Shown: in pieces, positions 563 through 12,275 of the stretch | Position numbering within the stretch: the first letter of the stretch is position 1 | Layout: each line of letters begins with the position of its first letter | Source of the DNA: an uncultured bacterium | GTDB lineage: Bacteria; Patescibacteriota; Minisyncoccia; SW-4-49-11 | Reading direction: 5' to 3' | Length of the DNA: 29,939 nucleotides | NCBI GenBank assembly: GCA_913060955.1 | Contig: CAJXTH010000001.1 | Location: 1 to 29,939 of the forward strand | Made by a program: the position numbers and the translations under genes | The notes under the pieces: model-generated | What the model saw: the letters and a program-made list of their open reading frames with translations, nothing else | Databases searched by the model: none | Told to the model about the DNA's origin: nothing

Positions 563-1579
563 ATGTTTAAGATACAGAAAAAAGAACTGTTAGACAAGTA
601 CTCTCGATGGAGAAAACAAGCGGAAGTAAGAAAGCTAAGTACAGAAGCAAGACTCAGACTTGAATGGATGATCCAACTTGATCAAGGAAAGTCTGTACAA
701 AGGATTTGTGCAGACTTTGGGATATCTCGTTCAGCACTCTACAAATGGAAGAAACGTTTTGTTTCAACCCATATTTCCTCTCTTGAGAGCCATGCACGAC
801 GACCGCACTCCGTGCGTTCTCGTCGTGCAACAGCACACCAAGATGAACGAGTGATCGCTTTGAGAAAGCACTATCCCTACTACGGGAAAGAAAAATTGAA
901 AGTAGTATACCAGAGAATATACCAAGAGAAGATTACTTCTTGGTATATTCAAAGAGTGATCCAAACCTACAAACTGTATCCAGCAAAACGAAAAGGGAAA
1001 GGTACTACACAAATAAGCCGAAAAAGGACTCCGAGAAAGAGAATAACTCACTTTACGGAGGAGAAGACCAGCTTCGGTCTTCTCCTGCATCTAGATACGA
1101 TAGAAGTCCGTATCCAAGGAAAGAAACGGTATATCCTCACAGCAGTAGATAGCTTTACTCGCGTAGGCTTTGCCTACGCGTATACCAATCACAGCTCAGC
1201 TTCAGCAAAAGATTTCTTGCTGAAGCTGTATGAGATCTTTGAAGGAAATATCCAGCATATCCATACAGATAATGGCTCTGAATTTGCTGGATATTTCGAG
1301 CGGGCTATCCAGAAATTAGAGTTAACTCATTGGTATTCACGGGTACGTGTAAGTAAAGATAATGCCAAGTGTGAAAGACTGAACAGGACTCTGCAAGATG
1401 AGATAAGCATGAGTCCTCACTACGGTTGGAGTTCGGATATTCAAGCCTTAAATGCTACACTAGGTGAATGGCTGTTAGAGTATCTCTACATTCGGCCTCA
1501 TGCCTCACTCTCATATGACACTCCTCTTCAATTTCTTGATAAAGTGTCCACGATGTCCTCATCTCGTACAGTCAATTGA
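563..1579 (+). CDS. IS481-family transposase (HTH + integrase core DDE)
   Basis: 338 aa. N-terminal HTH (SVQRICADFGISRSALYKWKKRF), DDE triad in HLDT / TDNGSEF / CERLNRT, and C-terminal YLYIRPHASL. The stop codon lies just beyond the right IR. Confidence 0.93.
   Translation: MFKIQKKELLDKYSRWRKQAEVRKLSTEARLRLEWMIQLDQGKSVQRICADFGISRSALYKWKKRFVSTHISSLESHARRPHSVRSRRATAHQDERVIALRKHYPYYGKEKLKVVYQRIYQEKITSWYIQRVIQTYKLYPAKRKGKGTTQISRKRTPRKRITHFTEEKTSFGLLLHLDTIEVRIQGKKRYILTAVDSFTRVGFAYAYTNHSSASAKDFLLKLYEIFEGNIQHIHTDNGSEFAGYFERAIQKLELTHWYSRVRVSKDNAKCERLNRTLQDEISMSPHYGWSSDIQALNATLGEWLLEYLYIRPHASLSYDTPLQFLDKVSTMSSSRTVN
1545..1570 (-). repeat. Right inverted repeat of IS
   Basis: TGTCCACGATGTCCTCATCTCGTACA; reads TGTACG... 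from the outside end. Confidence 0.8.
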
Positions 1580-1604
1580 CATTTAGTGATTTGCGTCATA
1601 TACT
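1576..1604 (+). promoter_or_regulatory. sigma70-type promoter of V/A-ATPase operon
   Basis: TTGACA (1576-1581), 17-bp spacer, TATACT (1599-1604), 23 bp upstream of the first operon ATG. Confidence 0.8.
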
Positions 1605-1627
1605 AGGGGCAAATGGTTAATTGATGT

Positions 1628-1897
1628 ATGAAAAAACTTACGCGTCTTGTCAATTTAGAAAAAAAGTACCAAGCTCAAGTCGCTGAGCTGGACGAGGAGT
1701 ACACCAAAAAGCAACTCGATCTCCAACAAGCAACTGTCAAAAAAATTGCTGATTTATCTGAAAAACTTTCAAAAAAAGAATCTATTATCAAATCAGAGGT
1801 CTCCAAACGAACCAAAAACCTGAAATCTGTCTCACCAAAACATCCACAGCTTGACGTATCAAAAGCTCGTCAAGTTCTTTTGAGTGAGCTTACCTAA
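1628..1897 (+). CDS. Probable V/A-type ATPase peripheral-stalk subunit H/G (NtpF-like)
   Basis: 89 aa, charged and coiled-coil-like. It occupies the first position of the canonical H-I-K-E-C-F-A-B-D order. Assigned by synteny, not by motif. Confidence 0.6.
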   Translation: MKKLTRLVNLEKKYQAQVAELDEEYTKKQLDLQQATVKKIADLSEKLSKKESIIKSEVSKRTKNLKSVSPKHPQLDVSKARQVLLSELT

Positions 1898-1937: not shown

Positions 1938-3980
1938 ATGGGAGTTAAAGCGTCTAAACAAGTCCAAATTTCTATCGCCAATGACCACAAATTGGATCTT
2001 TTGCGATATCTTCAAACCTCTGAAATTGCTCAAATCATCGAAAACCCTCAGGCCGCCCACCTTGAGCCGGAATATCTGGAAGCCAAGGAGGAACTGCTTG
2101 AACAACTTGATGAGGTAAATAAGGCTCTTGATACACTTGATCACTACCAGCCTCAGAAGTCAGGGCTTTTGGCTGGATTGTTTGATAATCGGATTCGACT
2201 TTCGGACAAAGAATACGCTACTCTATCCAAGAATCAGGAAAAACTTCTTACTGCTGCCGTTGATCTCTATCAAAAAGCAGAGCAAAAAGAGACCCTTGAG
2301 CAACGAAATCGAACACTTTCTGATGTTATTACGAAATCAGAACCACTGAAAGATATTGAAATTGATATCTTTGGAGACTACAAGTTTGTTGCTTTTGTCC
2401 CATTTATGGTTGACACAGAGCGAGCGCATCACGTGGTTGATCAAATCACCAATGTATTTGATGATGCTGTAGTAGAGTCACTGAAAAAGGTTGGTACCGA
2501 GTATGTTTATGTAGCTGCTGTTCGGAAATCTCAGGAGAAAGAGGCTACAGATCTGATTGCCAACCAAGCAACTGTGCTTACCTTCCGAAACGAGATTTCT
2601 GGATCGTTTTACGACATGTACACCACTGCTGTTGAAGAGTCTAAAAACAACACCAAGCAGATTGCTGAGATTGAACATGCTATTGCTACTTCCAAGGTAG
2701 ATCGAACTGATCTGTATGCCCTGAAAGATGTAATTCAGTCCCACATTCAGATTTTGAACGGACTGCATGCCTTCCACACCGAGACTGACAGCCGGTCATA
2801 TCTGAAAGTTTGGATGGATGATGAGAGCTTGACAACCTTGAAGCGAGTTGTGTCTCGGAAGTTCGACGGATCAGACGTGATTGTCTTTGATACCGATTCA
2901 GAAGACGCACCGATTATTATGAAAAACACTGGGATCATTGCTCAGTTCGAAACGGTTACCCGAATTATGGGACTTCCCAAGGGAGACAGTATTGATCCTA
3001 CCCCATTTGTAGCAATCTTCTTTGGATTCATGTTTGGACTTGGATTTTCTGAGGCTGGATATGCCTTGTTGTTGCTTGCAATCTCTGGAGGGCTGCTTCT
3101 TTCACCAAAATTGAAACAAGGAGTACGCCGACTGATGTCAGTTATCTTCCTATCATCGATCGTTACCTTGATCGTAGGAGCCTTGTTTGGAAGCTGGTTT
3201 GGAGTTGTTCCAGAAGATGTTGTAGCCTCAGAGGCACTCCCTCACATGCAATTCTTGATCAATGTTGGAGTGATTCCATTCTTGCAACAATTGCAAGTCA
3301 TGAACCCGCTCGATAGCGTGGTTGCTTTGATGGGATTCACCGTTGCACTTGGTATTTTGCATCTTTTGATCGGACTTGTTCTTGGGTTTGTCCAGGAGTA
3401 TTCTCGAGGAAATGCTATCGGAGGAGCGCTTGATTCTCTCTCTTGGTTTGGACTGATCATCTTTGGTGGAGTGGTTGTTGGAGCCCAAACTGATCTGTTG
3501 GGAGATGGTCTCAGTATGATTGCAGAACCACTTACCATCGCTTTTTATGTATATGTAGCTGCTATGATCTTAGTTCTGGGACGAGCAGCAGGAAATGTGT
3601 TTGCAATGCTCGCGAAAGGAGCATACGACATGTTCTTTGGAGCCATTGGATATCTATCCGATTCTCTTTCGTATACTCGATTGGTAGCTTTGGGGCTTGC
3701 CACCGGTATTATTGCTGGAGTAGTAGGAACGCTTGCTCGATTGGCCGGAGAAGGACTTGTTGAACAGGGAGGAGCGGCTCTGATCCTCGGATACCTTTTG
3801 ATGGCTACCATCTTTGTAATCGGTCATTTGTTTAACATTGCCTTGAACGTACTGGGAACCTATATTAACGTAGGACGACTTCACTTCGTGGAGTTCTTCA
3901 GTAAGTTCTTTGAGTCAGGTGGTGTTGAGCTCGAGCCAATGAGCCGATCTCAAGAATACATTCGAATCGAGAAGAAGTAA
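1938..3980 (+). CDS. ntpI: V/A-type ATPase subunit I (a)
   Basis: 680 aa with a soluble N-half and multi-TM C-half. Motifs DPTPFVAIFFGFMFG, SYTRLVALGLA (essential Arg) and RLHFVEFFSKF. Confidence 0.95.
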   Translation: MGVKASKQVQISIANDHKLDLLRYLQTSEIAQIIENPQAAHLEPEYLEAKEELLEQLDEVNKALDTLDHYQPQKSGLLAGLFDNRIRLSDKEYATLSKNQEKLLTAAVDLYQKAEQKETLEQRNRTLSDVITKSEPLKDIEIDIFGDYKFVAFVPFMVDTERAHHVVDQITNVFDDAVVESLKKVGTEYVYVAAVRKSQEKEATDLIANQATVLTFRNEISGSFYDMYTTAVEESKNNTKQIAEIEHAIATSKVDRTDLYALKDVIQSHIQILNGLHAFHTETDSRSYLKVWMDDESLTTLKRVVSRKFDGSDVIVFDTDSEDAPIIMKNTGIIAQFETVTRIMGLPKGDSIDPTPFVAIFFGFMFGLGFSEAGYALLLLAISGGLLLSPKLKQGVRRLMSVIFLSSIVTLIVGALFGSWFGVVPEDVVASEALPHMQFLINVGVIPFLQQLQVMNPLDSVVALMGFTVALGILHLLIGLVLGFVQEYSRGNAIGGALDSLSWFGLIIFGGVVVGAQTDLLGDGLSMIAEPLTIAFYVYVAAMILVLGRAAGNVFAMLAKGAYDMFFGAIGYLSDSLSYTRLVALGLATGIIAGVVGTLARLAGEGLVEQGGAALILGYLLMATIFVIGHLFNIALNVLGTYINVGRLHFVEFFSKFFESGGVELEPMSRSQEYIRIEKK

Positions 3981-4260
3981 GATCCATTTGGATCTTCTCA
4001 GCTGGGTCCCTGTACCCACACACTCCACACCAGGGGCTCAGCTGAGAGGATACCAATGGTATAGGTACAACCTCAAGACCTCTTACGGAATACATTCCGT
4101 AACGAAAATTCCTGATTGTGAGCGAAAGGAAGTCAAAGATTTTGAGAAATATTGAGATATTTTGAAAAGTTTTTGACAAGTTGCAGCCACAACTCATGAA
4201 TTTGCAGTAGGAAGATTATTTCGTAAGCGGTCTAAACCATATAACTAACTAGACACCGAT
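3981..4260 (+). other. 280-bp hairpin-rich intercistronic spacer between subunits I and K
   Basis: 16-bp stem 3997-4012/4031-4046, 9-bp inverted repeat 4083-4102, short hairpins at 3981-3994, 4050-4062 and 4063-4073, and four phased TTGA units at 4142-4181. Confidence 0.6.
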
Positions 4261-4737
4261 ATGGAACTATTAGGAGTAAGCTTAGCAGTACTGGGAGCAG
4301 CATTGGCTGCAGGTCTCGCAGGAGCAGGATCAACCATGGGAGTGTCCAAAACCGGACAAACCGGAGCTGGACTTGTCTCAGAAGATGAATCGCAGTTCGG
4401 TAACGTTCTGTTGCTATCTGCACTTCCTGGATCCCAGGCAATTTATGGTCTTTTGGCCTCAATTATTATTTTGCAGAACACCGGAGTTTTGACCGGAGAG
4501 TTCGCTGCCGTACCATGGCAAAGCGGATTGATTCTTGCATTTGCTGGACTTCCAGTTGGAATCACCTGTCTTGCATCTGGAAAATTCCAGGGAGAAGTTC
4601 TTGCTTCTGGAATCCAAGTTATTGCTAAAGACAAATCCAAAATCGGACAAGTTATTATCTTGGCTGCTTTGGTTGAGACCTTCGCCGTATTCGGTCTCTT
4701 GATTTCTATCTTGATGATCAACGGAGTACAAATCTAA
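4261..4737 (+). CDS. ntpK: V/A-type ATPase proteolipid subunit K (c), 4-TM, Na+-type signature
   Basis: 158 aa duplicated hairpin: LPGSQAIYG (first hairpin, Gln), SGKFQG and LVETF (single Glu). Colinear with Enterococcus hirae NtpK. Confidence 0.95.
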   Translation: MELLGVSLAVLGAALAAGLAGAGSTMGVSKTGQTGAGLVSEDESQFGNVLLLSALPGSQAIYGLLASIIILQNTGVLTGEFAAVPWQSGLILAFAGLPVGITCLASGKFQGEVLASGIQVIAKDKSKIGQVIILAALVETFAVFGLLISILMINGVQI

Positions 4738-4750
4738 CCCTCCATTCACT

Positions 4751-5287
4751 ATGTCACTTGAACGCTTCGTAAAACAGGAGATCCAAAAAGAATTGGACGC
4801 AAAACAGGCTGCTCATAATCAGCAGCTCCAACAACTTGAGCGAGAATCCTCTCGTGAGGTTGCTACTATGGAGCGGGCCTACACCTCCGAAGTTGAGCGA
4901 GCAATTGAATCTCAGGTTAACCTGGAAGCTTTTCAGGGAAAGAAAGCTGCTACCTTTGAGTCGGCTACGTCTCTTAACGAGCAAATTGACACCCTCTACC
5001 GAGAGGCACTTCCTGAGATCCTTTCATCTCCATTTGGACAAGCTCAGGTAACAGAATTTTTGGCTCAGGCTGATAAGTCAACCAGCTTTACTGTTACTGG
5101 AACCAAATCTGAACTTCTGACCGGACTCTTGTCTGAATTTAAATCTTCTCAGATTTCTGTCGAGGAATCTGACGACCTTGGATTGATTACCTATACCACT
5201 GGAGATACCACGATTGAATTCTCTCTCGAGGATCTAATCGACGCCGCCAAGGCAAAAACCCTCACCAAAGTAACCGCTTGCATTTAG
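4751..5287 (+). CDS. ntpE: V/A-type ATPase subunit E (divergent)
   Basis: 178 aa with an N-terminal coiled coil and a C-terminal globular region, positioned after K. Assigned mainly by synteny and architecture. Confidence 0.65.
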   Translation: MSLERFVKQEIQKELDAKQAAHNQQLQQLERESSREVATMERAYTSEVERAIESQVNLEAFQGKKAATFESATSLNEQIDTLYREALPEILSSPFGQAQVTEFLAQADKSTSFTVTGTKSELLTGLLSEFKSSQISVEESDDLGLITYTTGDTTIEFSLEDLIDAAKAKTLTKVTACI

Positions 5288-5290
5288 CCT

Positions 5291-6226
5291 ATGTCTCTCG
5301 AGATCCCCGTCACTGGAATCGCTGGTAGCACCGTATACCGTCTTCATAGACTTCCCCGCTATGAAGATTTGGTGACGTTTTTAACATCTTCGGCCTTTCC
5401 TACCTCGCTTCGACCATTCTTGGACGAGCACCTTACGGGAGTTTCTGGAGACTCAGATATTGAGGCAATCAACACCTACTTTGATGCTGAAATGAGCCGA
5501 TTGATCAATGATCTCCCGGCAACAAGTCCGGCTCGCGTCTATCTTGCGCTGGGAAAAGACTTTGAGACCATCAAACGACATTCCCTCGAGAATAAAGAGC
5601 ACGGAAAAGAGTTCGGAGTCAAAGGACTCATGGCAACCTTGGATGCAGCTCGATCAGAACTTTATTACAGCCAAGAATTCCGATCTGAACTGTTGGCAAA
5701 AGAAGATCGGATTAGCAAATCTACCGAACTCTTTGGACTGATTTCTTATCTCGAAGAAGCCTACCTTGCAATTTTGTACCGACAGTTAAGTCAATCCAAC
5801 GACTACTTCCGGTCTGTAGCAGTTGCCAAGATCAACACCTACTCCTTTATGAGTGCTATCAAGCGAACCGAAAAAGGTCAGGCCAAAGATCATATTTTGG
5901 CTCACGCTCTTCCAATCCAAGGAGTACCGGCTATTACTGCCCTCAAGGCATTTGGTTTTGGTGATATTGTGGGAGAAATTGGATCGTTCTTGGAAATTCC
6001 AGGAACTGAAATCTCTGTTGCGCGCATCGAATCAGAACTATTGGCTCGAGAGATCCGAACCATCAACAAAGCTACCTACCACGGAGTAGCTGATGAGCGA
6101 ATTGTGCAGTACGCTGAGCAACTCTATCACCTGTTTGCCAACATAAAACTGGCCTATTTCCAGAAAATGTTTGCAGGATCAGAGGAAGAAACGGTACTTC
6201 GAATGATTAACTATACCCAACTGTAA
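5291..6226 (+). CDS. ntpC: V/A-type ATPase subunit C (d) (divergent)
   Basis: 311 aa alpha-helical protein between E and F. Size and position match subunit C. Confidence 0.7.
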   Translation: MSLEIPVTGIAGSTVYRLHRLPRYEDLVTFLTSSAFPTSLRPFLDEHLTGVSGDSDIEAINTYFDAEMSRLINDLPATSPARVYLALGKDFETIKRHSLENKEHGKEFGVKGLMATLDAARSELYYSQEFRSELLAKEDRISKSTELFGLISYLEEAYLAILYRQLSQSNDYFRSVAVAKINTYSFMSAIKRTEKGQAKDHILAHALPIQGVPAITALKAFGFGDIVGEIGSFLEIPGTEISVARIESELLAREIRTINKATYHGVADERIVQYAEQLYHLFANIKLAYFQKMFAGSEEETVLRMINYTQL

Positions 6227-6227
6227 T

Positions 6228-6551
6228 ATGGAAGCCTCCAAGAAGTCTATCTTAATCGGTCGAAACGACACAGCTACTCTCTTCAAAATCTTTGGATTTG
6301 AGACCTTTTCTATCGATACTCTGGAGCCCCAACAGATTCTCCAATCACTCCACGAGATGCAGTCAGAGCTCGGGATTATTCTCCGAACTTCCGAGGTGCA
6401 TTTTTCCGACAAACACGAACAGTTTCTCCAGCACTTGGACGTACCAATGATTACCATTCCAGTACAAGCCGGTGAGGGAAACGTAGCCGCCGACAAGTTC
6501 GAACGACTGGTAGAAAAAGCGGTCGGAATGAAGCTCGACTTTCTGAAATAA
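6228..6551 (+). CDS. ntpG: V/A-type ATPase subunit F
   Basis: 107 aa. ILIGRNDTATLFKIFG resembles IAVIGDxDTVxGFxLxG, and the C-terminal LVEKAVGMK matches the family. Confidence 0.85.
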   Translation: MEASKKSILIGRNDTATLFKIFGFETFSIDTLEPQQILQSLHEMQSELGIILRTSEVHFSDKHEQFLQHLDVPMITIPVQAGEGNVAADKFERLVEKAVGMKLDFLK

Positions 6552-6654
6552 CGAGCTCGTTGTTCCCGGACAGATGTGCCAGATTGGCCTATCTGCTCGA
6601 GAATAACCCAAAAGTTCTCGACAACAACGCAAATGAATTAAGCATACGAACGAT
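6552..6654 (+). promoter_or_regulatory. Structured leader (three-way junction candidate) upstream of subunit A
   Basis: P1 6558-6564/6623-6629; P2 6571-6575/6591-6595 with inner GCCA-GAT-TGGC; P3 6597-6604/6614-6621. Confidence 0.5.
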
Positions 6655-8466
6655 ATGGTTACAGGAACAATCATCAAGGTATCTGGACCGCTGGTAGTTG
6701 CTACTGGTATGGATGGAGCCAAAATGTATGACGTGGTCAAAGTTGGTCACCAAAAGTTGATGGGAGAAATCATCGAACTTCGGGGTGGCGATGCTTCGAT
6801 CCAGGTCTACGAGGAAACAACTGGAATGAAAGTTGGAGAGCCAGTAGAATCAACTGGAGAGCCGCTTTCTATTGAGCTCGGGCCGGGACTCTTGTCTTCA
6901 GGTCTCTTTGACGGAATCTTGCGCCCACTGAATGTTATTGCTCAAAAGGCCGAGGAACAAGGACTTCACTCAGGATATATCCCTCGAGGAGTTCAGATTC
7001 CATCTCTTGATCGAGAAATCAAGTGGCACTTTACCCCAACAGTCAAAGACGGAGACAGCGTTGTTGCCGGAGATATTTTGGGAACTGTTCAGGAAACTGA
7101 ACTTATTGAACACAAAATCATGGTGCCCTACGGCGTATCCGGAGAAGTCTCTGGAATTTCCGAAGGAGACTACACCGTGACCGAAGATATTGCCAAAGTT
7201 GGAGAAACACCAGTTCAGCTGATGCACCGATGGCCAGTGCGAGTCGCTCGACCCCGAAAGGAAAAGCTCTTGCCAAAGACCCCGCTTGTTACTCAACAGA
7301 GAATTGTTGATACCTTCTTTCCGGTACCCAAGGGAGGAGCAGCCTGTGTTCCCGGACCGTTTGGAGCTGGAAAGACCGTTATTCAGCAGCAGCTAGCCAA
7401 GTGGTCAGACGCTCAAGTTGTGATCTACGTAGGATGTGGAGAGCGAGGAAACGAGCTTACCGATATCTTGGTTGAGTTCCCTCACTTGAAAGATCCAAAG
7501 TCTGGACGACCATTGATGGAACGAACCTTGGTGATCGCCAATACTTCAAACATGCCGATCGCAGCCCGAGAAGCATCTGTCTACACCGGAATCACTCTTG
7601 CTGAGTACTACCGAGACATGGGATACGATGTCGCCATGATGGCTGACTCAACCTCACGATGGGCCGAGGCCATGCGAGAAATGTCAGGACGACTAGAAGA
7701 AATGCCCGGAGAAGAAGGATATCCAGCCTACCTAGGATCTCGAATCTCAGCGTTTTACGAGCGAGCCGGAGCAATCACATGTATCGGATCTGAGAAACGA
7801 CGAGGATCAGCAACCATTGTTGCCGCTGTTTCGCCTCCTGGAGGAGACCTTTCTGAGCCGGTATCCCAGGCTACTTTGAAAGTAACCAAAGCCTACTGGG
7901 GACTGGATGCCTCACTGGCAGCCAAGAAACACTTCCCTTCTATCCACTGGCTCAACAGTTACAGTTTGTACGGAAAGCAAGTAGAAGACTACTTTGTCAA
8001 AGAAGCCGGAGCCGACTGGCCGGAGCTTCGAGACTTAGCTATGGAAATTTTGCAAAAAGAATCTGAACTTGACGACATCATCAAGCTGGTTGGACTCGAC
8101 GCGCTTTCAGCCGAAGAAAAAGTTCTTCTGGACACCGCTCGAGGACTTCGAGAGGATTACCTGCAACAGAATGCATTTGACGACATTGATGCTTTTGCTT
8201 CAACTCGAAAAATGTACCTGATGATCAAGGCTATGATGACCTTCCACCGAGAAGCAATCAAGCTTGTCCGACAGACTCCAGACCTGGACGTATCCAAGAT
8301 CTCAGAACTAGATATTCGAGACCGAATTGCTCGATTGAAGCAAACTCCAGAGTCAGAAATCGAATCAGTAGTCGAGCTGATTGAGAACATCCCGAGCGCT
8401 CTTGCAACAGTGGCTGAGGCCGAGGCAGGAGACTTTGGAATCAACAAGACCGTTAACGGAATGTAA
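6655..8466 (+). CDS. ntpA: V/A-type ATPase catalytic subunit A
   Basis: 603 aa. P-loop [27 protein letters not shown] and [10 protein letters not shown]. No intein. Confidence 0.98.
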
Positions 8467-8471
8467 TCCCT

Positions 8472-9860
8472 ATGAAAACTTGGCACAAAACAATCAAAGA
8501 AGTCGCTGGATCGCTGGTCATCATCGAGAAAGTGCAAGACGTCGCCTACGAAGAGGTAGTTGAGGTCAAAGACGCCGAAGGAAATCTTCGAAAAGGACGA
8601 GTACTCGAGGTTCACAATGATACCGCTGTAGTACAGCTCTTCACCGGAACCCAAGGACTCGACACCAAGGATGCCCAAGCTGCATTCCTCGGAGAGACCT
8701 TGAAATTCGGAGTAAGCGAGCACATGCTTGGTCGAGTATTCACTGGAGCAGGAGATATCAAAGACGGAGGTCCAGAAATCATTGCTGACAAGTACCTCGA
8801 CATCAACGGAGCTCCGATTAACCCCGGAATGCGAGACTTTCCCGACCAATTTATCCAAACTGGAATTTCAACCATCGATGGACTCAACGCGTTGGTGCGA
8901 GGACAGAAGCTTCCGATCTTTTCTGGAGCTGGACTTCCCCACTCTGAACTTGCGGCGCAAATCGCCCAGCAAGCCGCTGCCGTATCGGTAGATGCCGACC
9001 AAAACGTGCAAAAATCCGACGAGAAGTTCGCAGTAATCTTTGCTGCAATGGGAGTAACCTTTGAGGAAGCTCAGTTCTTTATTGATTCATTTGAGTCAAC
9101 TGGAGCTATGGAAAACGCCGCTGTGTTCGTAAACACTGCCGATGATCCAATCGTAGAGCGAATCACCCTTCCTCGACTTGCCCTTACCCTGGGAGAATAC
9201 CTAGCCTTTGAAAAAGACATGCACGTGTTGGTGATCATGACCGACATGACCAATTACGCTGACGGACTTCGAGAGATCTCAGCATCTCGAAAAGAAATTC
9301 CCGGACGACGAGGATACCCAGGATACATGTATACCGACCTTGCTACCATGTATGAGCGAGCTGGACTGATCCAGGGACGAAAAGGATCTCTGACTCAGGT
9401 TCCAATTCTTACCATGCCGGACGACGACAAACAGCATCCAATTCCTGACCTTACCGGATATATTACCGAGGGACAGATCATGGTTGACCGAACTCTTCAC
9501 AACCAAGGAGTATACCCACCGGTCCAGCCGATTGGATCTCTTTCTCGAATCAAAGTAGACAAAAAAGCTACCCGAGAAGATATTGCCGCAGTACAAGATC
9601 AGATGTCAGCCTCATACGCCAAAGGACGAGAGATCAAAGAACTCGCCCTCATTTTGGGAGAATCTGCCCTCTCTGACACCGACCGAGCCTACATGAAGTT
9701 CGCGACTGAGTTCGAAAAACACTACATTACCCAGGGTCGAGGAGAAAACCGATCTATTATCGATACCCTGAACCTATCTTGGGAGCTTCTTTCAATCTTG
9801 CCAGTAAAAGAATTGAAAAAAGTAAAGCCTGAGTTCATTGAAAAGTACGGCAACCGCTAA
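8472..9860 (+). CDS. ntpB: V/A-type ATPase subunit B
   Basis: 462 aa. Motifs [28 protein letters not shown] and [15 protein letters not shown]. Confidence 0.98.
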
Positions 9861-9873
9861 GGGCATGTATTTG

Positions 9874-9963
9874 GTGAATTCCTGCGTTGTGTTCGTCGTA
9901 ATTCCCCTCACAATATGCCAGATATTGCTCACGGAAATTACTCCTCCACGCCTTGAACTTCAC
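9874..9963 (+). other. Long imperfect hairpin in B-D spacer
   Basis: Nested pairings GTGAA/TTCAC, GCGT/ACGC, GTAATT/AATTAC and CAATAT/ATATTG, with loop GCCAG. Confidence 0.5.
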
Positions 9964-9998
9964 TCAAATCCATAACCCTTAGTTAACAATATTGATTT

Positions 9999-10613
9999 AT
10001 GGCACAAATCAAACCCACCAGACAGGAGTTCCTCAAGCTGAAGAAAAAGGTCAAAACCGCTTCTCGAGGACATCGTTTGCTCAAAGATAAGCGAGACGGA
10101 TTGATTCAAAAGTTCTTGGCAATCGTTAAAGATGCTTTGACCTTGCGAAAAGAGATCGATGAATCTTTGGTAAAAGCCATTGAACTTTTCCGATACGCCG
10201 AAGCTAAAACTTCGGACCAATACTTAGCTTCTATTGCCGAGCAATCCGAGGCTCAGATTCGAATTGCCCTTGAGACCGCAAACTTTATGGGTGTACATGT
10301 GCCAAACCTTGAGTTTGAAGTCTCGGGAGATCCATTTAACTATGGAGTCCTCAATACACCCAAAGATCTCGACCAATCTCTAGTTACACTCCATCAACTC
10401 CTCCCAAAGCTCGTCAAGTTAGCAGAATTGGAGTATACAGCCCGGAAACTGGCAGAAGAGATCGAGAAGACCCGACGCCGAGTAAACGCCCTAGAACACG
10501 TAATTATCCCGGAAATGAAAGACGACATGGGATATATCAAAGGAGTACTCGAAGAACGATCCCGCCAAGAGAAAGTCACCATCATGAAGGTAAAAGAACT
10601 CCTTGGTCTGTAA
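9999..10613 (+). CDS. ntpD: V/A-type ATPase subunit D
   Basis: 204 aa. Motifs KPTRQEFLKLK, GHRLLKDKRD and EIEKTRRRVNALEHVIIP. Confidence 0.96.
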   Translation: MAQIKPTRQEFLKLKKKVKTASRGHRLLKDKRDGLIQKFLAIVKDALTLRKEIDESLVKAIELFRYAEAKTSDQYLASIAEQSEAQIRIALETANFMGVHVPNLEFEVSGDPFNYGVLNTPKDLDQSLVTLHQLLPKLVKLAELEYTARKLAEEIEKTRRRVNALEHVIIPEMKDDMGYIKGVLEERSRQEKVTIMKVKELLGL

Positions 10614-10620
10614 CTCACTT

Positions 10621-10641
10621 CCCCGCTCCGGCGGGGTTTTT
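10621..10641 (+). terminator. Intrinsic terminator of ATPase operon
   Basis: CCCCGC-TCCG-GCGGGG followed by TTTTT, 7 bp after the subunit D stop. Confidence 0.85.
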
Positions 10642-10660
10642 GGTTTCCTCTCAATATTCA

Positions 10661-10669
10661 TGATATACT
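10661..10669 (+). promoter_or_regulatory. Extended -10 promoter element (TG-A-TATACT)
   Basis: TGATATACT lies downstream of the operon terminator with no protein gene behind it on this strand. Confidence 0.55.
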
Positions 10670-10675
10670 AACCTT

Positions 10676-10888
10676 GAAGAAAGGTATTTGCCGGGCTCTT
10701 CATGGACATCCAGCTAGTTGGTGAGGTAAAAGCTCACCAAGGCCTAGAGCTAACTTCTCGATGGAGAATCTTCAATCTGAAGCGGAAAGGATATCTTTCT
10801 TTGTTATGTGCGATGCATGTAACTGTTTCTAGTGACTGGAGCTCTTCTATGCCTAACCTTCCCGTTGGAATGTTGGGCTTTTTCTTTT
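10676..10888 (+). ncRNA. Candidate structured non-coding RNA (~210 nt), family unknown
   Basis: Own extended -10 and own terminator, five or more consecutive hairpins and a long-range closing stem. There is no convincing ORF and no downstream gene on this strand. Confidence 0.5.
10851..10888 (+). terminator. Intrinsic terminator
   Basis: GCCTAAC-C-TTCC-CGTT-GGAA-T-GTTGGGC followed by TTTTTCTTTT. Confidence 0.75.
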
Positions 10889-10948
10889 AATTCAAAGTAA
10901 AATCTCTGACTTTATGTAGCCAGAGACTTTATTGTTGATACAAAGATC

Positions 10949-11512
10949 CTATACCTCCAAATAATGCTTTTGAACAGAATTAATCGGGTGACCATATCCA
11001 TTTTTCTGGATGTGAAGTCGATCTTCATCAAACACAGCTCGGGCAATTGCCGTCCAAGCAAGATACTCAACGCCTTTCATGAATGGATGCATTCGCTGAG
11101 ACTTAAATCCAACCAGATATTGTATCCGATTAAAGTTATGACAAACAGCTGACACATGACCATGTTCAATTTCGATTACTGCAACCTCCCAAAGAACGTT
11201 TTGAGTGTCGGGACATCGATATTTATGGAACCAAATCAAACCGTTTTTAACTGTTCCTTTACCAGTCACAGCTTCAAATGCAAGTTGTTCTGGACCCTCA
11301 GATGTAATCTGAATATCTTTGACAAACCGTCCATAAGTTCTTTTATGTACTCCTTTGTTCCCAACTCCATGGATATGGTCAAGACTGATCAACATGAATG
11401 GTCGAACCATAGCCGATGTTATAGGGACTACGCCTTGCACCCAAGTTATCTGATCAGACTGAAATAATCGCAGGTTTTGTAAAAGAAATTCTCTCACAGC
11501 ACTATCTCCCAA
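10949..11512 (-). CDS. Hypothetical protein (187 aa, start uncertain)
   Basis: Longest ORF in the interval. A TTGAAA-16-TAGTAT element lies at 11532-11559 on the same strand. No recognisable domain. Confidence 0.5.
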   Translation of the reverse strand: MGDSAVREFLLQNLRLFQSDQITWVQGVVPITSAMVRPFMLISLDHIHGVGNKGVHKRTYGRFVKDIQITSEGPEQLAFEAVTGKGTVKNGLIWFHKYRCPDTQNVLWEVAVIEIEHGHVSAVCHNFNRIQYLVGFKSQRMHPFMKGVEYLAWTAIARAVFDEDRLHIQKNGYGHPINSVQKHYLEV

Positions 11513-11568
11513 AAGGTGCTTTTACTTCTTTATACTACTGGTATTCCTGTGTTTTTCAAGATGTTTCC

Positions 11569-11946
11569 TCAGACCTCTTGAGATTTAAAGTAATACCCAA
11601 CTACAAATCCGAGTGGAGTTCCGAGTAACACCTGCAGTACCATGAGGGTATCCTCAATGTGAATGAGATACTCTACCATGTCGGGTTTGAAGAAAATGAT
11701 CACAAAGTTAAAGAGGACAATAATACCAAAGATAAACGGTATCAACGAAATATAGGCCCTCACAAACATTTGAGCGATACTGTTCCGAGTATCTGACTCT
11801 CGTTTTTTCAACGAGGCACTCAAGTCACTCAGAACTGCTTCCGCTGATCCTCCATCACTTAACACATCTTGAAATTCCTGCTCGATCTTTTCAAGTTCTA
11901 ATCTTTGTTGGTCCTGCTTTGATAGATATTCTTCTGTATCAGACAT
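11569..11946 (-). CDS. Hypothetical 2-TM membrane protein
   Basis: 125 aa with an acidic coiled N-terminus and two hydrophobic segments, ending LGFVVGYYFKS. Confidence 0.7.
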   Translation of the reverse strand: MSDTEEYLSKQDQQRLELEKIEQEFQDVLSDGGSAEAVLSDLSASLKKRESDTRNSIAQMFVRAYISLIPFIFGIIVLFNFVIIFFKPDMVEYLIHIEDTLMVLQVLLGTPLGFVVGYYFKSQEV

Positions 11947-11982
11947 GTTCTTTGTGATTCCGGTTCCCGAACTCGAGCACTG

Positions 11983-12225
11983 TTATTTCAATACTTCTGC
12001 ATACTTCTTCGCTTCTGGAACAAGGCGCTTCACCTCTTTTCCAAGCTCAGAATATTCTTTGAGAAGCTTTTGGTATACTTCCGGATTATCACGAAATTTT
12101 TCTATGTATTGTCGTGTTCTCTTTGCTTCAGCAAGTTTTTCTCGAAGCTGAGTATAGACTTCCCGAGCCTCAGCAATGTCTGAGGAAGATACATGCTTTT
12201 GTTTTCCAAATAATCCACCAACCAT
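11983..12225 (-). CDS. Hypothetical helical protein (80 aa)
   Basis: Amphipathic helical composition, directly downstream of a strong promoter, apparently co-transcribed with 11569-11946. Confidence 0.65.
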   Translation of the reverse strand: MVGGLFGKQKHVSSSDIAEAREVYTQLREKLAEAKRTRQYIEKFRDNPEVYQKLLKEYSELGKEVKRLVPEAKKYAEVLK

Positions 12226-12246
12226 ATTTTTCTATTAGATATTGTT

Positions 12247-12275
12247 ATTATACTCCGTATCACGCGCAATCTCAA
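12247..12275 (-). promoter_or_regulatory. sigma70-type promoter for the 80-aa/125-aa gene pair
   Basis: Minus strand TTGAGA-17-TATAAT, overlapping the stop codon of the P-type ATPase. Confidence 0.7.

Follow-up and report, generated by a model that had tools for sequence, protein, structure and literature searches.

A putative small RNA carrying a copy of 16S rRNA helix 11 downstream of the V-ATPase operon of an uncultured SW-4-49-11 bacterium

The S15, S8 and L1 leaders mimic the rRNA binding sites of ribosomal proteins, and, to our knowledge, rRNA mimicry by other RNAs has been encountered mainly in such cis-acting leaders of ribosomal-protein operons. Among the helices of the small subunit, helix 11 of the 16S rRNA, which we take to span about nt 240-286 in E. 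coli numbering, is contacted in the 30S structure by the proteins uS17 and bS20. Here we describe a copy of this helix that lies outside any rRNA gene, in a gene-free stretch of the chromosome of an uncultured bacterium (SW-4-49-11), and we compare it with the helix-11 copies that we found in related genomes and in phages. The locus belongs to a stretch of 29,939 nt, analysed as a whole and hereafter called the window; the assembly from which it comes has a size of 742 kb and is 71% complete, and the genomes of its relatives measure 0.5-1.2 Mb. The original prediction for this locus, made from the letters of the DNA, had proposed a stand-alone, multi-hairpin RNA with its own promoter and terminator immediately after the V-ATPase operon. 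The gene for subunit D, the last gene of that operon, is directly followed by a 335-nt gap without genes, and the features of the gap and its surroundings are listed below.

1938-10613: operon for a V/A-type ATPase; the last gene, which encodes subunit D (identified by Pfam PF01813), ends at 10613
10621-10636, plus strand: T1, the intrinsic terminator of the V-ATPase operon, with six G-C pairs followed by a T run (terminator scan; -13.7 kcal/mol)
10661-10669, plus strand: extended -10-like sequence TGATATACT, recognised from the sequence, with a weak -35
10676-10802, plus strand: predicted branched domain closed by stem P1, in the MFE and centroid folds (z of -3.9)
10702-10757, plus strand: helix-11 look-alike with its core at 10711-10743 and its hairpin at 10718-10740; the flanks are only loosely 16S-like
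10702-10890, plus strand: 62-codon open reading frame with an ATG, judged not to be a gene
10803-10823, plus strand: 9-bp hairpin GTTATGTGC/GCATGTAAC (-8.2 kcal/mol)
10851-10888, plus strand: T2, a second intrinsic terminator, with an interrupted 11-bp stem followed by U5CU4 (-14.7 kcal/mol)
10931-10898, minus strand: terminator of the convergent gene, with a 14-bp stem (-17.5 kcal/mol); right edge of the RNA unit
10949-11512, minus strand: convergent orphan gene of 187 aa (153/187 aa)
11569-11946, minus strand: gene for a 125-aa protein without family assignment

The bounds proposed for the RNA on its two sides were largely borne out. The operon is already closed by a terminator of its own, which the scan located as T1, and the second plus-strand terminator folds stably and runs into its U tract as predicted. 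These two terminators, both on the plus strand and 215 nt apart, flank a gene-free stretch, and no plus-strand gene lies downstream, the next gene (10949-11512) being on the minus strand with its own terminator. A cis-acting ribosomal-protein leader was rejected as a candidate because no plus-strand gene follows and the neighbours are the minus-strand orphan gene and the 125-aa gene. Neither of these two genes has a match in Pfam, NCBIfam or PADLOC, although a single PHROG, of unknown function, matches the 125-aa protein; the next gene beyond the two encodes a P-type ATPase.

The promoter fared less well. The extended -10 of the original prediction is present at 10661-10669, but, taken alone, the promoter lacks statistical support: TGNTATAMT occurs three times in the 30-kb window when both strands are counted, and by our own estimate about 1.8 occurrences are expected. 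The candidate -35, TTGGTT, matches the consensus at three of six positions and is separated from TGATATACT by an 18-nt spacer, and a promoter at 10661-10669 is absent from the list produced by a promoter scan of the window. The start predicted from this -10 falls near G10676, the first base of stem P1. The only other plus-strand occurrence of TGNTATACT in the window is at 12071, inside another gene-free gap (11946-12272, 325 nt) at the opposite edge of a low-GC island that spans 10949-12271.

In comparison with dinucleotide shuffles, the plus strand gave fold z scores of -2.9 (10661-10888), -3.6 (10676-10888) and -3.9 (10676-10803), and the minus strand scores of only -1.3 to -2.1; the plus strand therefore folds better. 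The branched domain is closed by P1, a predicted long-range stem of 14 bp in which the purine-rich 5′ end (10676-10689) pairs with 10789-10802 at a pair probability of ~0.6. Both the MFE and the centroid fold contain hairpins at 10718-10740, 10756-10769, 10771-10783 and 10803-10823, and the hairpins previously proposed at 10718-10740, TTCTC/GAGAA, CTTCA/TGAAG and 10803-10823 are all present in the MFE fold. Two further pairings that had been proposed were not recovered: the closing helix between 10709-10717 and 10829-10840 has a pair probability below 0.01, and the GAAAGG segment, assigned earlier to a local hairpin with TCTTTC, is predicted to take part in P1 instead (probability ~0.6).

What is the hairpin at the centre of this fold? 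The original prediction had noticed it without recognising that it is a copy of 16S rRNA helix 11. Positions 10711-10743 are identical at 30 of 33 positions (91%) to nt 244-276 of the genome's own 16S rRNA on contig C37, a segment that we assign to helix 11 on the assumption of the standard numbering, and in the predicted RNA the hairpin at 10718-10740 has pair probabilities of 0.8-1.0. The three mismatches all spare the 8-bp stem: the loop has two of them, and the third is immediately 5′ of the stem. Apart from this match, which has a genome-wide E value of 1e-4, and the rRNA gene itself, the 742-kb assembly contains no 16S-like sequence. The element shares with 16S helix 11 the 8-bp stem UUGGUGAG/CUCACCAA, a 7-nt loop of equal size, an AGCUAG flank on the 5′ side and an AAGGC flank on the 3′ side, and it thus presents the module UUGGUGRG-loop-CUYACCAA with AGCUAG and AAGG flanks at a non-rRNA location. 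It differs in its loop (GUAAAAG in the window, GUAAUGG in the 16S rRNA), in the 3′ strand of the lower helix, where GACG..UAGG is replaced by CUAGAGCU, and in not lying inside an rRNA gene. The 3′ internal loop GGCGAYGA, found in the 16S rRNA and in the phage cassettes described below, is not retained, the window having AAGGCCUAGAGCU; judged from the sequence, the absence of these internal-loop bases (GACGA), which phage copies and 16S keep, weakens the reading of the hairpin as a possible protein-binding mimic. A 16S rRNA gene or pseudogene was also considered and rejected, because the significant alignment covers just 33 nt, its extension is unconvincing and an intact 16S gene is present on contig C37; the Rfam SSU model gave no score for the helix-11 fragment of the window.

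The same bases are crossed by the open frame at 10702-10890, and the original prediction had named the alternative that this frame is translated and conserved as a protein. An open frame with an ATG does exist. However, its product has no Pfam match and no homologue among 5.8 billion clustered proteins, and the frame was not called as a gene on the identical ENA contig; it passes through the T2 hairpin and stops in its T run. The most 'conserved' part of the peptide, QLVGEVKAHQG, corresponds to the helix-11 bases in translation, and most of the phage loci that we examined have the near-identical QLVGEVMAHQG or QLVGEVTAHQG within frames that are short and broken. We therefore consider a small protein very improbable, and on this count the RNA reading is not refuted.

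Could the element belong to a known RNA family? Rfam 15 was searched with the whole window at gathering scores and with 10550-11000 at E values up to 10. The first search gave no match, including to 6S RNA, SRP RNA, riboswitches, T-boxes and introns, and the Rfam families matched in the window include no helix-11 mimic; the second gave only chance matches of ohsC and RsmY on the terminator hairpins. The original prediction had been unable to recognise a known family by eye, and with this outcome its suggestion of a new class is tenable; a riboswitch or T-box was rejected on the lack of a match to any Rfam model. Its other suggestion, a divergent 6S or SRP-type RNA, did not stand. Like 6S RNA (RF00013) and bacterial SRP RNA (RF00169, RF01854), the element would be a stand-alone RNA gene of about the right length, and the Rfam models detect neither 6S nor SRP RNA in the genome and no SRP RNA in the family, which would favour such an identity. 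In contrast to these RNAs, however, it is not matched by any of the three models even at an E value of 10, its fold is multi-branched and unlike the 6S rod with its central bubble, and searches of 16 family relatives, of which 13 have a completeness of at least 90%, did not recover it. The probability of a 6S or SRP RNA is in our judgement almost negligible, and that of a small protein and a 6S or SRP RNA taken jointly is still very small. As to the family in general, RF00169 detected no SRP RNA in any of 17 genomes (the source genome of the window and 16 others), many of them 98-100% complete, RF01854 detected none in five family genomes, and the 6S model detected none in the source genome. 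Current models may miss an SRP RNA that has diverged too far in this family.

Conservation in related genomes, where the original prediction had proposed to look for it, was not found, and no orthologue of the element was recovered in any genome searched. When the element was compared by blastn with 41 relatives, the matches were confined to 16S rRNA genes and all fell on query bases 72-104 (10711-10743); likewise, the single-sequence covariance model R1, run on the 17 family genomes, matched only the helix-11 part of 16S genes. The D subunit gene was located in 15 of the 16 other family genomes, where the DNA after it is unrelated to the window, and in every relative examined this sequence, short or unrelated, is a different one. 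A metagenome scan with the D protein returned only distant loci (35-49% identity), and an exact-protein look-up returned one other contig, which is 100% identical and so without variation. An RNA that was not found in 16 relatives of its family shows a pattern unlike that of a housekeeping RNA.

These comparisons bear on the possibility that the stretch is an extended 3′ UTR of the V-ATPase operon, in which T1 is read through, T2 serves as a fail-safe terminator that shields the convergent gene, and the structure stabilises the 3′ end. The element lies on the same strand as the operon, the evidence for a promoter is weak, and tandem terminators ahead of convergent genes are common. Nevertheless, T1, with its six G-C pairs and T run, is strong, fail-safe termination needs no structured spacer of 215 nt with an rRNA copy, and relatives have short or unrelated sequences after the D gene. 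We assign the extended 3′ UTR a small probability.

A more serious alternative is a non-functional relic, namely a piece of 16S rRNA, or of an RNA from a mobile element that contained such a piece, captured into a variable island and now decaying there, with the hairpins and T2 as leftovers or products of chance. The variability of the region after the D gene is in keeping with such an origin, as are the base composition of the neighbouring segment (39.8% GC in 10949-12271, against 45-47% on either side), its orphan genes, the fading of the 16S likeness in the flanks and the failure to find orthologues. The element adjoins the edge of this low-GC, strain-specific island of orphan genes; at the island borders, we found no meaningful direct repeats and no second copy of the end of the D gene. 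On the other hand, decay has touched none of the stem positions, all three differences from the 16S rRNA sparing the stem, the genome holds no other 16S fragment, and a plus-strand-specific fold together with a well-formed plus-strand terminator is unexpected of junk. In another genome, G002 (loci L039 and L040; contig C105), a second copy of the final 22 codons of the V-ATPase D gene lies ~2.5 kb past the end of the intact gene. This sequence arrangement suggests a possible insertion at the operon's 3′ end, which is where the window has its variable island.

The frequency of helix-11 copies in the lineage as a whole is also relevant to a relic. We searched 401 genomes of the class for the stem pattern TTGGTGRG, 5-9 nt, CTYACCAA, which in these marks, with few exceptions, a single locus per genome, in the 16S gene. 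RNA-like helix-11 loci outside rRNA were found in one family only, comprising the source genome of the window (G000), G010 and G004; this is one family out of more than 100 sampled, a clustering that speaks against a relic. Among the other extra loci, those in G016 and G024 were rejected as fragments of 16S, and that in G398 shows no 16S similarity past the stem pattern. The extra locus in G182 was rejected as a self-matching CRISPR spacer, in which 34 of 34 positions agree with helix 11 in the 16S rRNA gene of G182 itself; the array lies at about 1130-1400 of locus L191 (minus strand; contig C2) and has a 37-nt repeat and the 34-nt helix-11 spacer. This spacer counts in favour of a relic, as it indicates that DNA can acquire a helix-11 piece of 16S that has no function as an RNA. 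On balance, we hold a relic to be unlikely, although with a sizeable probability.

The loci in G010 and G004 correspond to an unannotated RNA gene of ~330 nt, located between typA and a cofD-family gene at the following positions.

L005, about 1285-1650 (G010, contig C1): unannotated ~330-nt RNA gene, G010 copy, with the RNA itself at about 1318-1650
L056, about 1490-1860, minus strand (G004, contig C8): unannotated ~330-nt RNA gene, G004 copy

This RNA carries two helix-11 hairpins, and its 11-bp closing stem begins at the predicted 5′ end. The G010 copy has the promoter TTGACA-16-TATAGT, kept in G004 as TTGACA..TATAAT, and its terminator is clearly recognisable; identity between the two copies amounts to 77%, and the base pairs are kept. 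No Rfam family matches the RNA, which is present in two of the 12 genomes of its genus and missing at the same locus in the other ten. The resemblance to the window has several aspects. First, the RNA occurs in the same bacterial family and stands alone between convergent genes. Second, its 5′ end forms part of a long closing stem, and it contains the helix-11 hairpin. Third, the G010 hairpin and the copy in the window both have the CTAG and AAAAGC variants. The RNA of G010 and G004 differs, however, in having two hairpins rather than one, a consensus promoter and another locus. The 3′ internal loop is lacking in G010, and G004 keeps a version of it with more of the 16S 3′ strand. Flank similarity between the window element and this RNA was not above that of shuffles in local or long-gap alignments. 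As far as the sequences allow a judgement, it is possible that the two are of common descent.

In the genus g5, the spacers between typA and the cofD-family gene (L063-L073) are hypervariable, with lengths of 280-1050 nt and differing small ORFs, one of which, in G004, has a weak CARF/HEPN-like match; these spacers share a conserved palindromic, promoter-like motif, AAATTGCAAG. A dispersed repeat of ~70 nt with internal hairpins was also observed in the source genome of the window, at 3380-3470 of contig C37 and on at least 15 other contigs (for example, C21 at 3170-3225, C2, C64 and C87). The repeat is not a tRNA by ARAGORN; one copy precedes the 16S gene and another closely follows the cofD-family gene.

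Helix-11 copies outside rRNA genes are not restricted to these bacteria. A blastn search of a phage collection gave non-rRNA matches in Shewanella phage vB_SbaS_Y11, where the match is intergenic, in Yersinia phage vB_YenM_30.14, where it lies outside an rRNA gene, and in Streptomyces phage Omar, which carries a non-coding, 118-nt miniature of 16S positions 106-311 that scores 68 bits against RF00177, above the gathering threshold. In the Omar miniature (L080, 550-667), internal 16S helices are swapped for a short hairpin, and a match to the type II hammerhead ribozyme (1717-1781; 47.8 bits) is found ~1 kb from it. An exact pattern scan of IMG/VR returned 107 stretches. All 80 of the 80 IMG/VR loci examined have only ~43 nt of 16S similarity and none is an rRNA gene; there is no consistent long reading frame over the helix-11 copy, and a scan of IMG/VR for the AAAAG loop variant gave none.

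The main phage group carries a cassette of ~150 nt (IMG/VR cassette loci L082-L204) whose conservation across 53 distinct sequences is 90% or more, against 30-60% in the flanks; judged from these sequences, the helix-11 module in phage leader RNAs is under strong conservation. The cassette ends with its own ribosome-binding site and ATG, after which 29 different first genes follow. In E. coli prophages, it follows the early-left promoter as part of the leader that precedes gam, bet and exo (L189, 3503-3783); of 5426 complete E. coli genomes, 127 were matched by megablast when the query was a 501-nt segment comprising the cassette together with its flanks. The leader upstream of the cassette corresponds to the part of phage HK639 (L190) that bears the annotation 'putL-like antiterminator RNA'; HK639 itself has, in the cassette slot, a tRNA-like acceptor/T-arm minihelix ending in CCA. 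The copy in E. coli phages has the form UUGGUGAGG...CUCACCAAGG, which is presumably not the form of E. coli's own helix 11, and this difference suggests a maintained module rather than a recent pick-up from the host. As proposed for the window, the phage cassette places a helix-11 copy in a non-coding RNA without other rRNA similarity. In contrast to the terminated small RNA proposed for the window, it is a cis leader with a ribosome-binding site before variable genes, it keeps the GGCGACGA internal loop, and its hosts are enterobacteria. The cassette has no Rfam family, and full-text literature searches yielded nothing relevant on phage mimics of helix 11 or of rRNA.

We therefore return to the small RNA itself. 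Our preferred reading, adopted tentatively and with slightly less than even confidence, is that 10676-10888 may encode an orphan, lineage-specific and independently terminated small RNA of ~210 nt that carries a helix-11 decoy; it draws on the sequence and on predicted structure. An independent non-coding RNA, as originally predicted, thus persists in its main part, being bounded by a terminator, structured on the plus strand and free of coding or known-family signals, and loses its proposed 6S or SRP identity. A stand-alone small RNA is favoured by its own terminator, by plus-strand-specific structure, by a 5′ end buried in a helix and by the intact rRNA hairpin, and it is further favoured by the RNA gene of G010 and G004, which is a clear case within the family and has the same architecture. 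Because helix 11 recurs in unrelated non-rRNA RNAs, the hairpin is a candidate for the functional part. We propose that transcription would begin from the RNA's own promoter at 10661-10669, with the 5′ end entering the long closing stem P1, and that the helix-11 hairpin would be the working part, an rRNA surface shown off the ribosome. Such a copy might bind, and so titrate or recruit, a factor that normally recognises helix 11; candidates would be primary assembly proteins such as uS17 or bS20. Protein-binding mimicry would be the most economical mechanism. The weak promoter, the singleton occurrence of the element and its position at the edge of a low-GC island count against a decoy, whereas the RNA of G010 and G004 has a consensus promoter.

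A broader proposal is that the element belongs to an undescribed RNA class, distributed over CPR chromosomes and phages of distant hosts, in which helix 11 would act as a decoy or recruitment site for a universally conserved factor that binds this helix, such as uS17 or bS20. We give this proposal a modest probability and regard it as unlikely. If it were true, the class would tie ribosome assembly or the levels of free ribosomal proteins to small-RNA function and to early phage expression. The presence of the module in conserved lambdoid leaders, for which we found neither an Rfam entry nor a published description, suggests an overlooked general function. Although the bacterium of the window is uncultured, the function of the helix-11 module is accessible in E. 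coli phages.

How does the element compare with the described cases of rRNA mimicry? As in the S15, S8 and L1 leaders, an RNA off the ribosome copies a protein-binding piece of rRNA. The leaders, however, are located 5′ of ribosomal-protein genes and act in cis, whereas no plus-strand gene follows the element of the window. A stand-alone small RNA with a helix-11 copy would therefore be a trans-acting version of the mimicry found in ribosomal-protein leaders, in organisms whose RNA biology is almost unknown.
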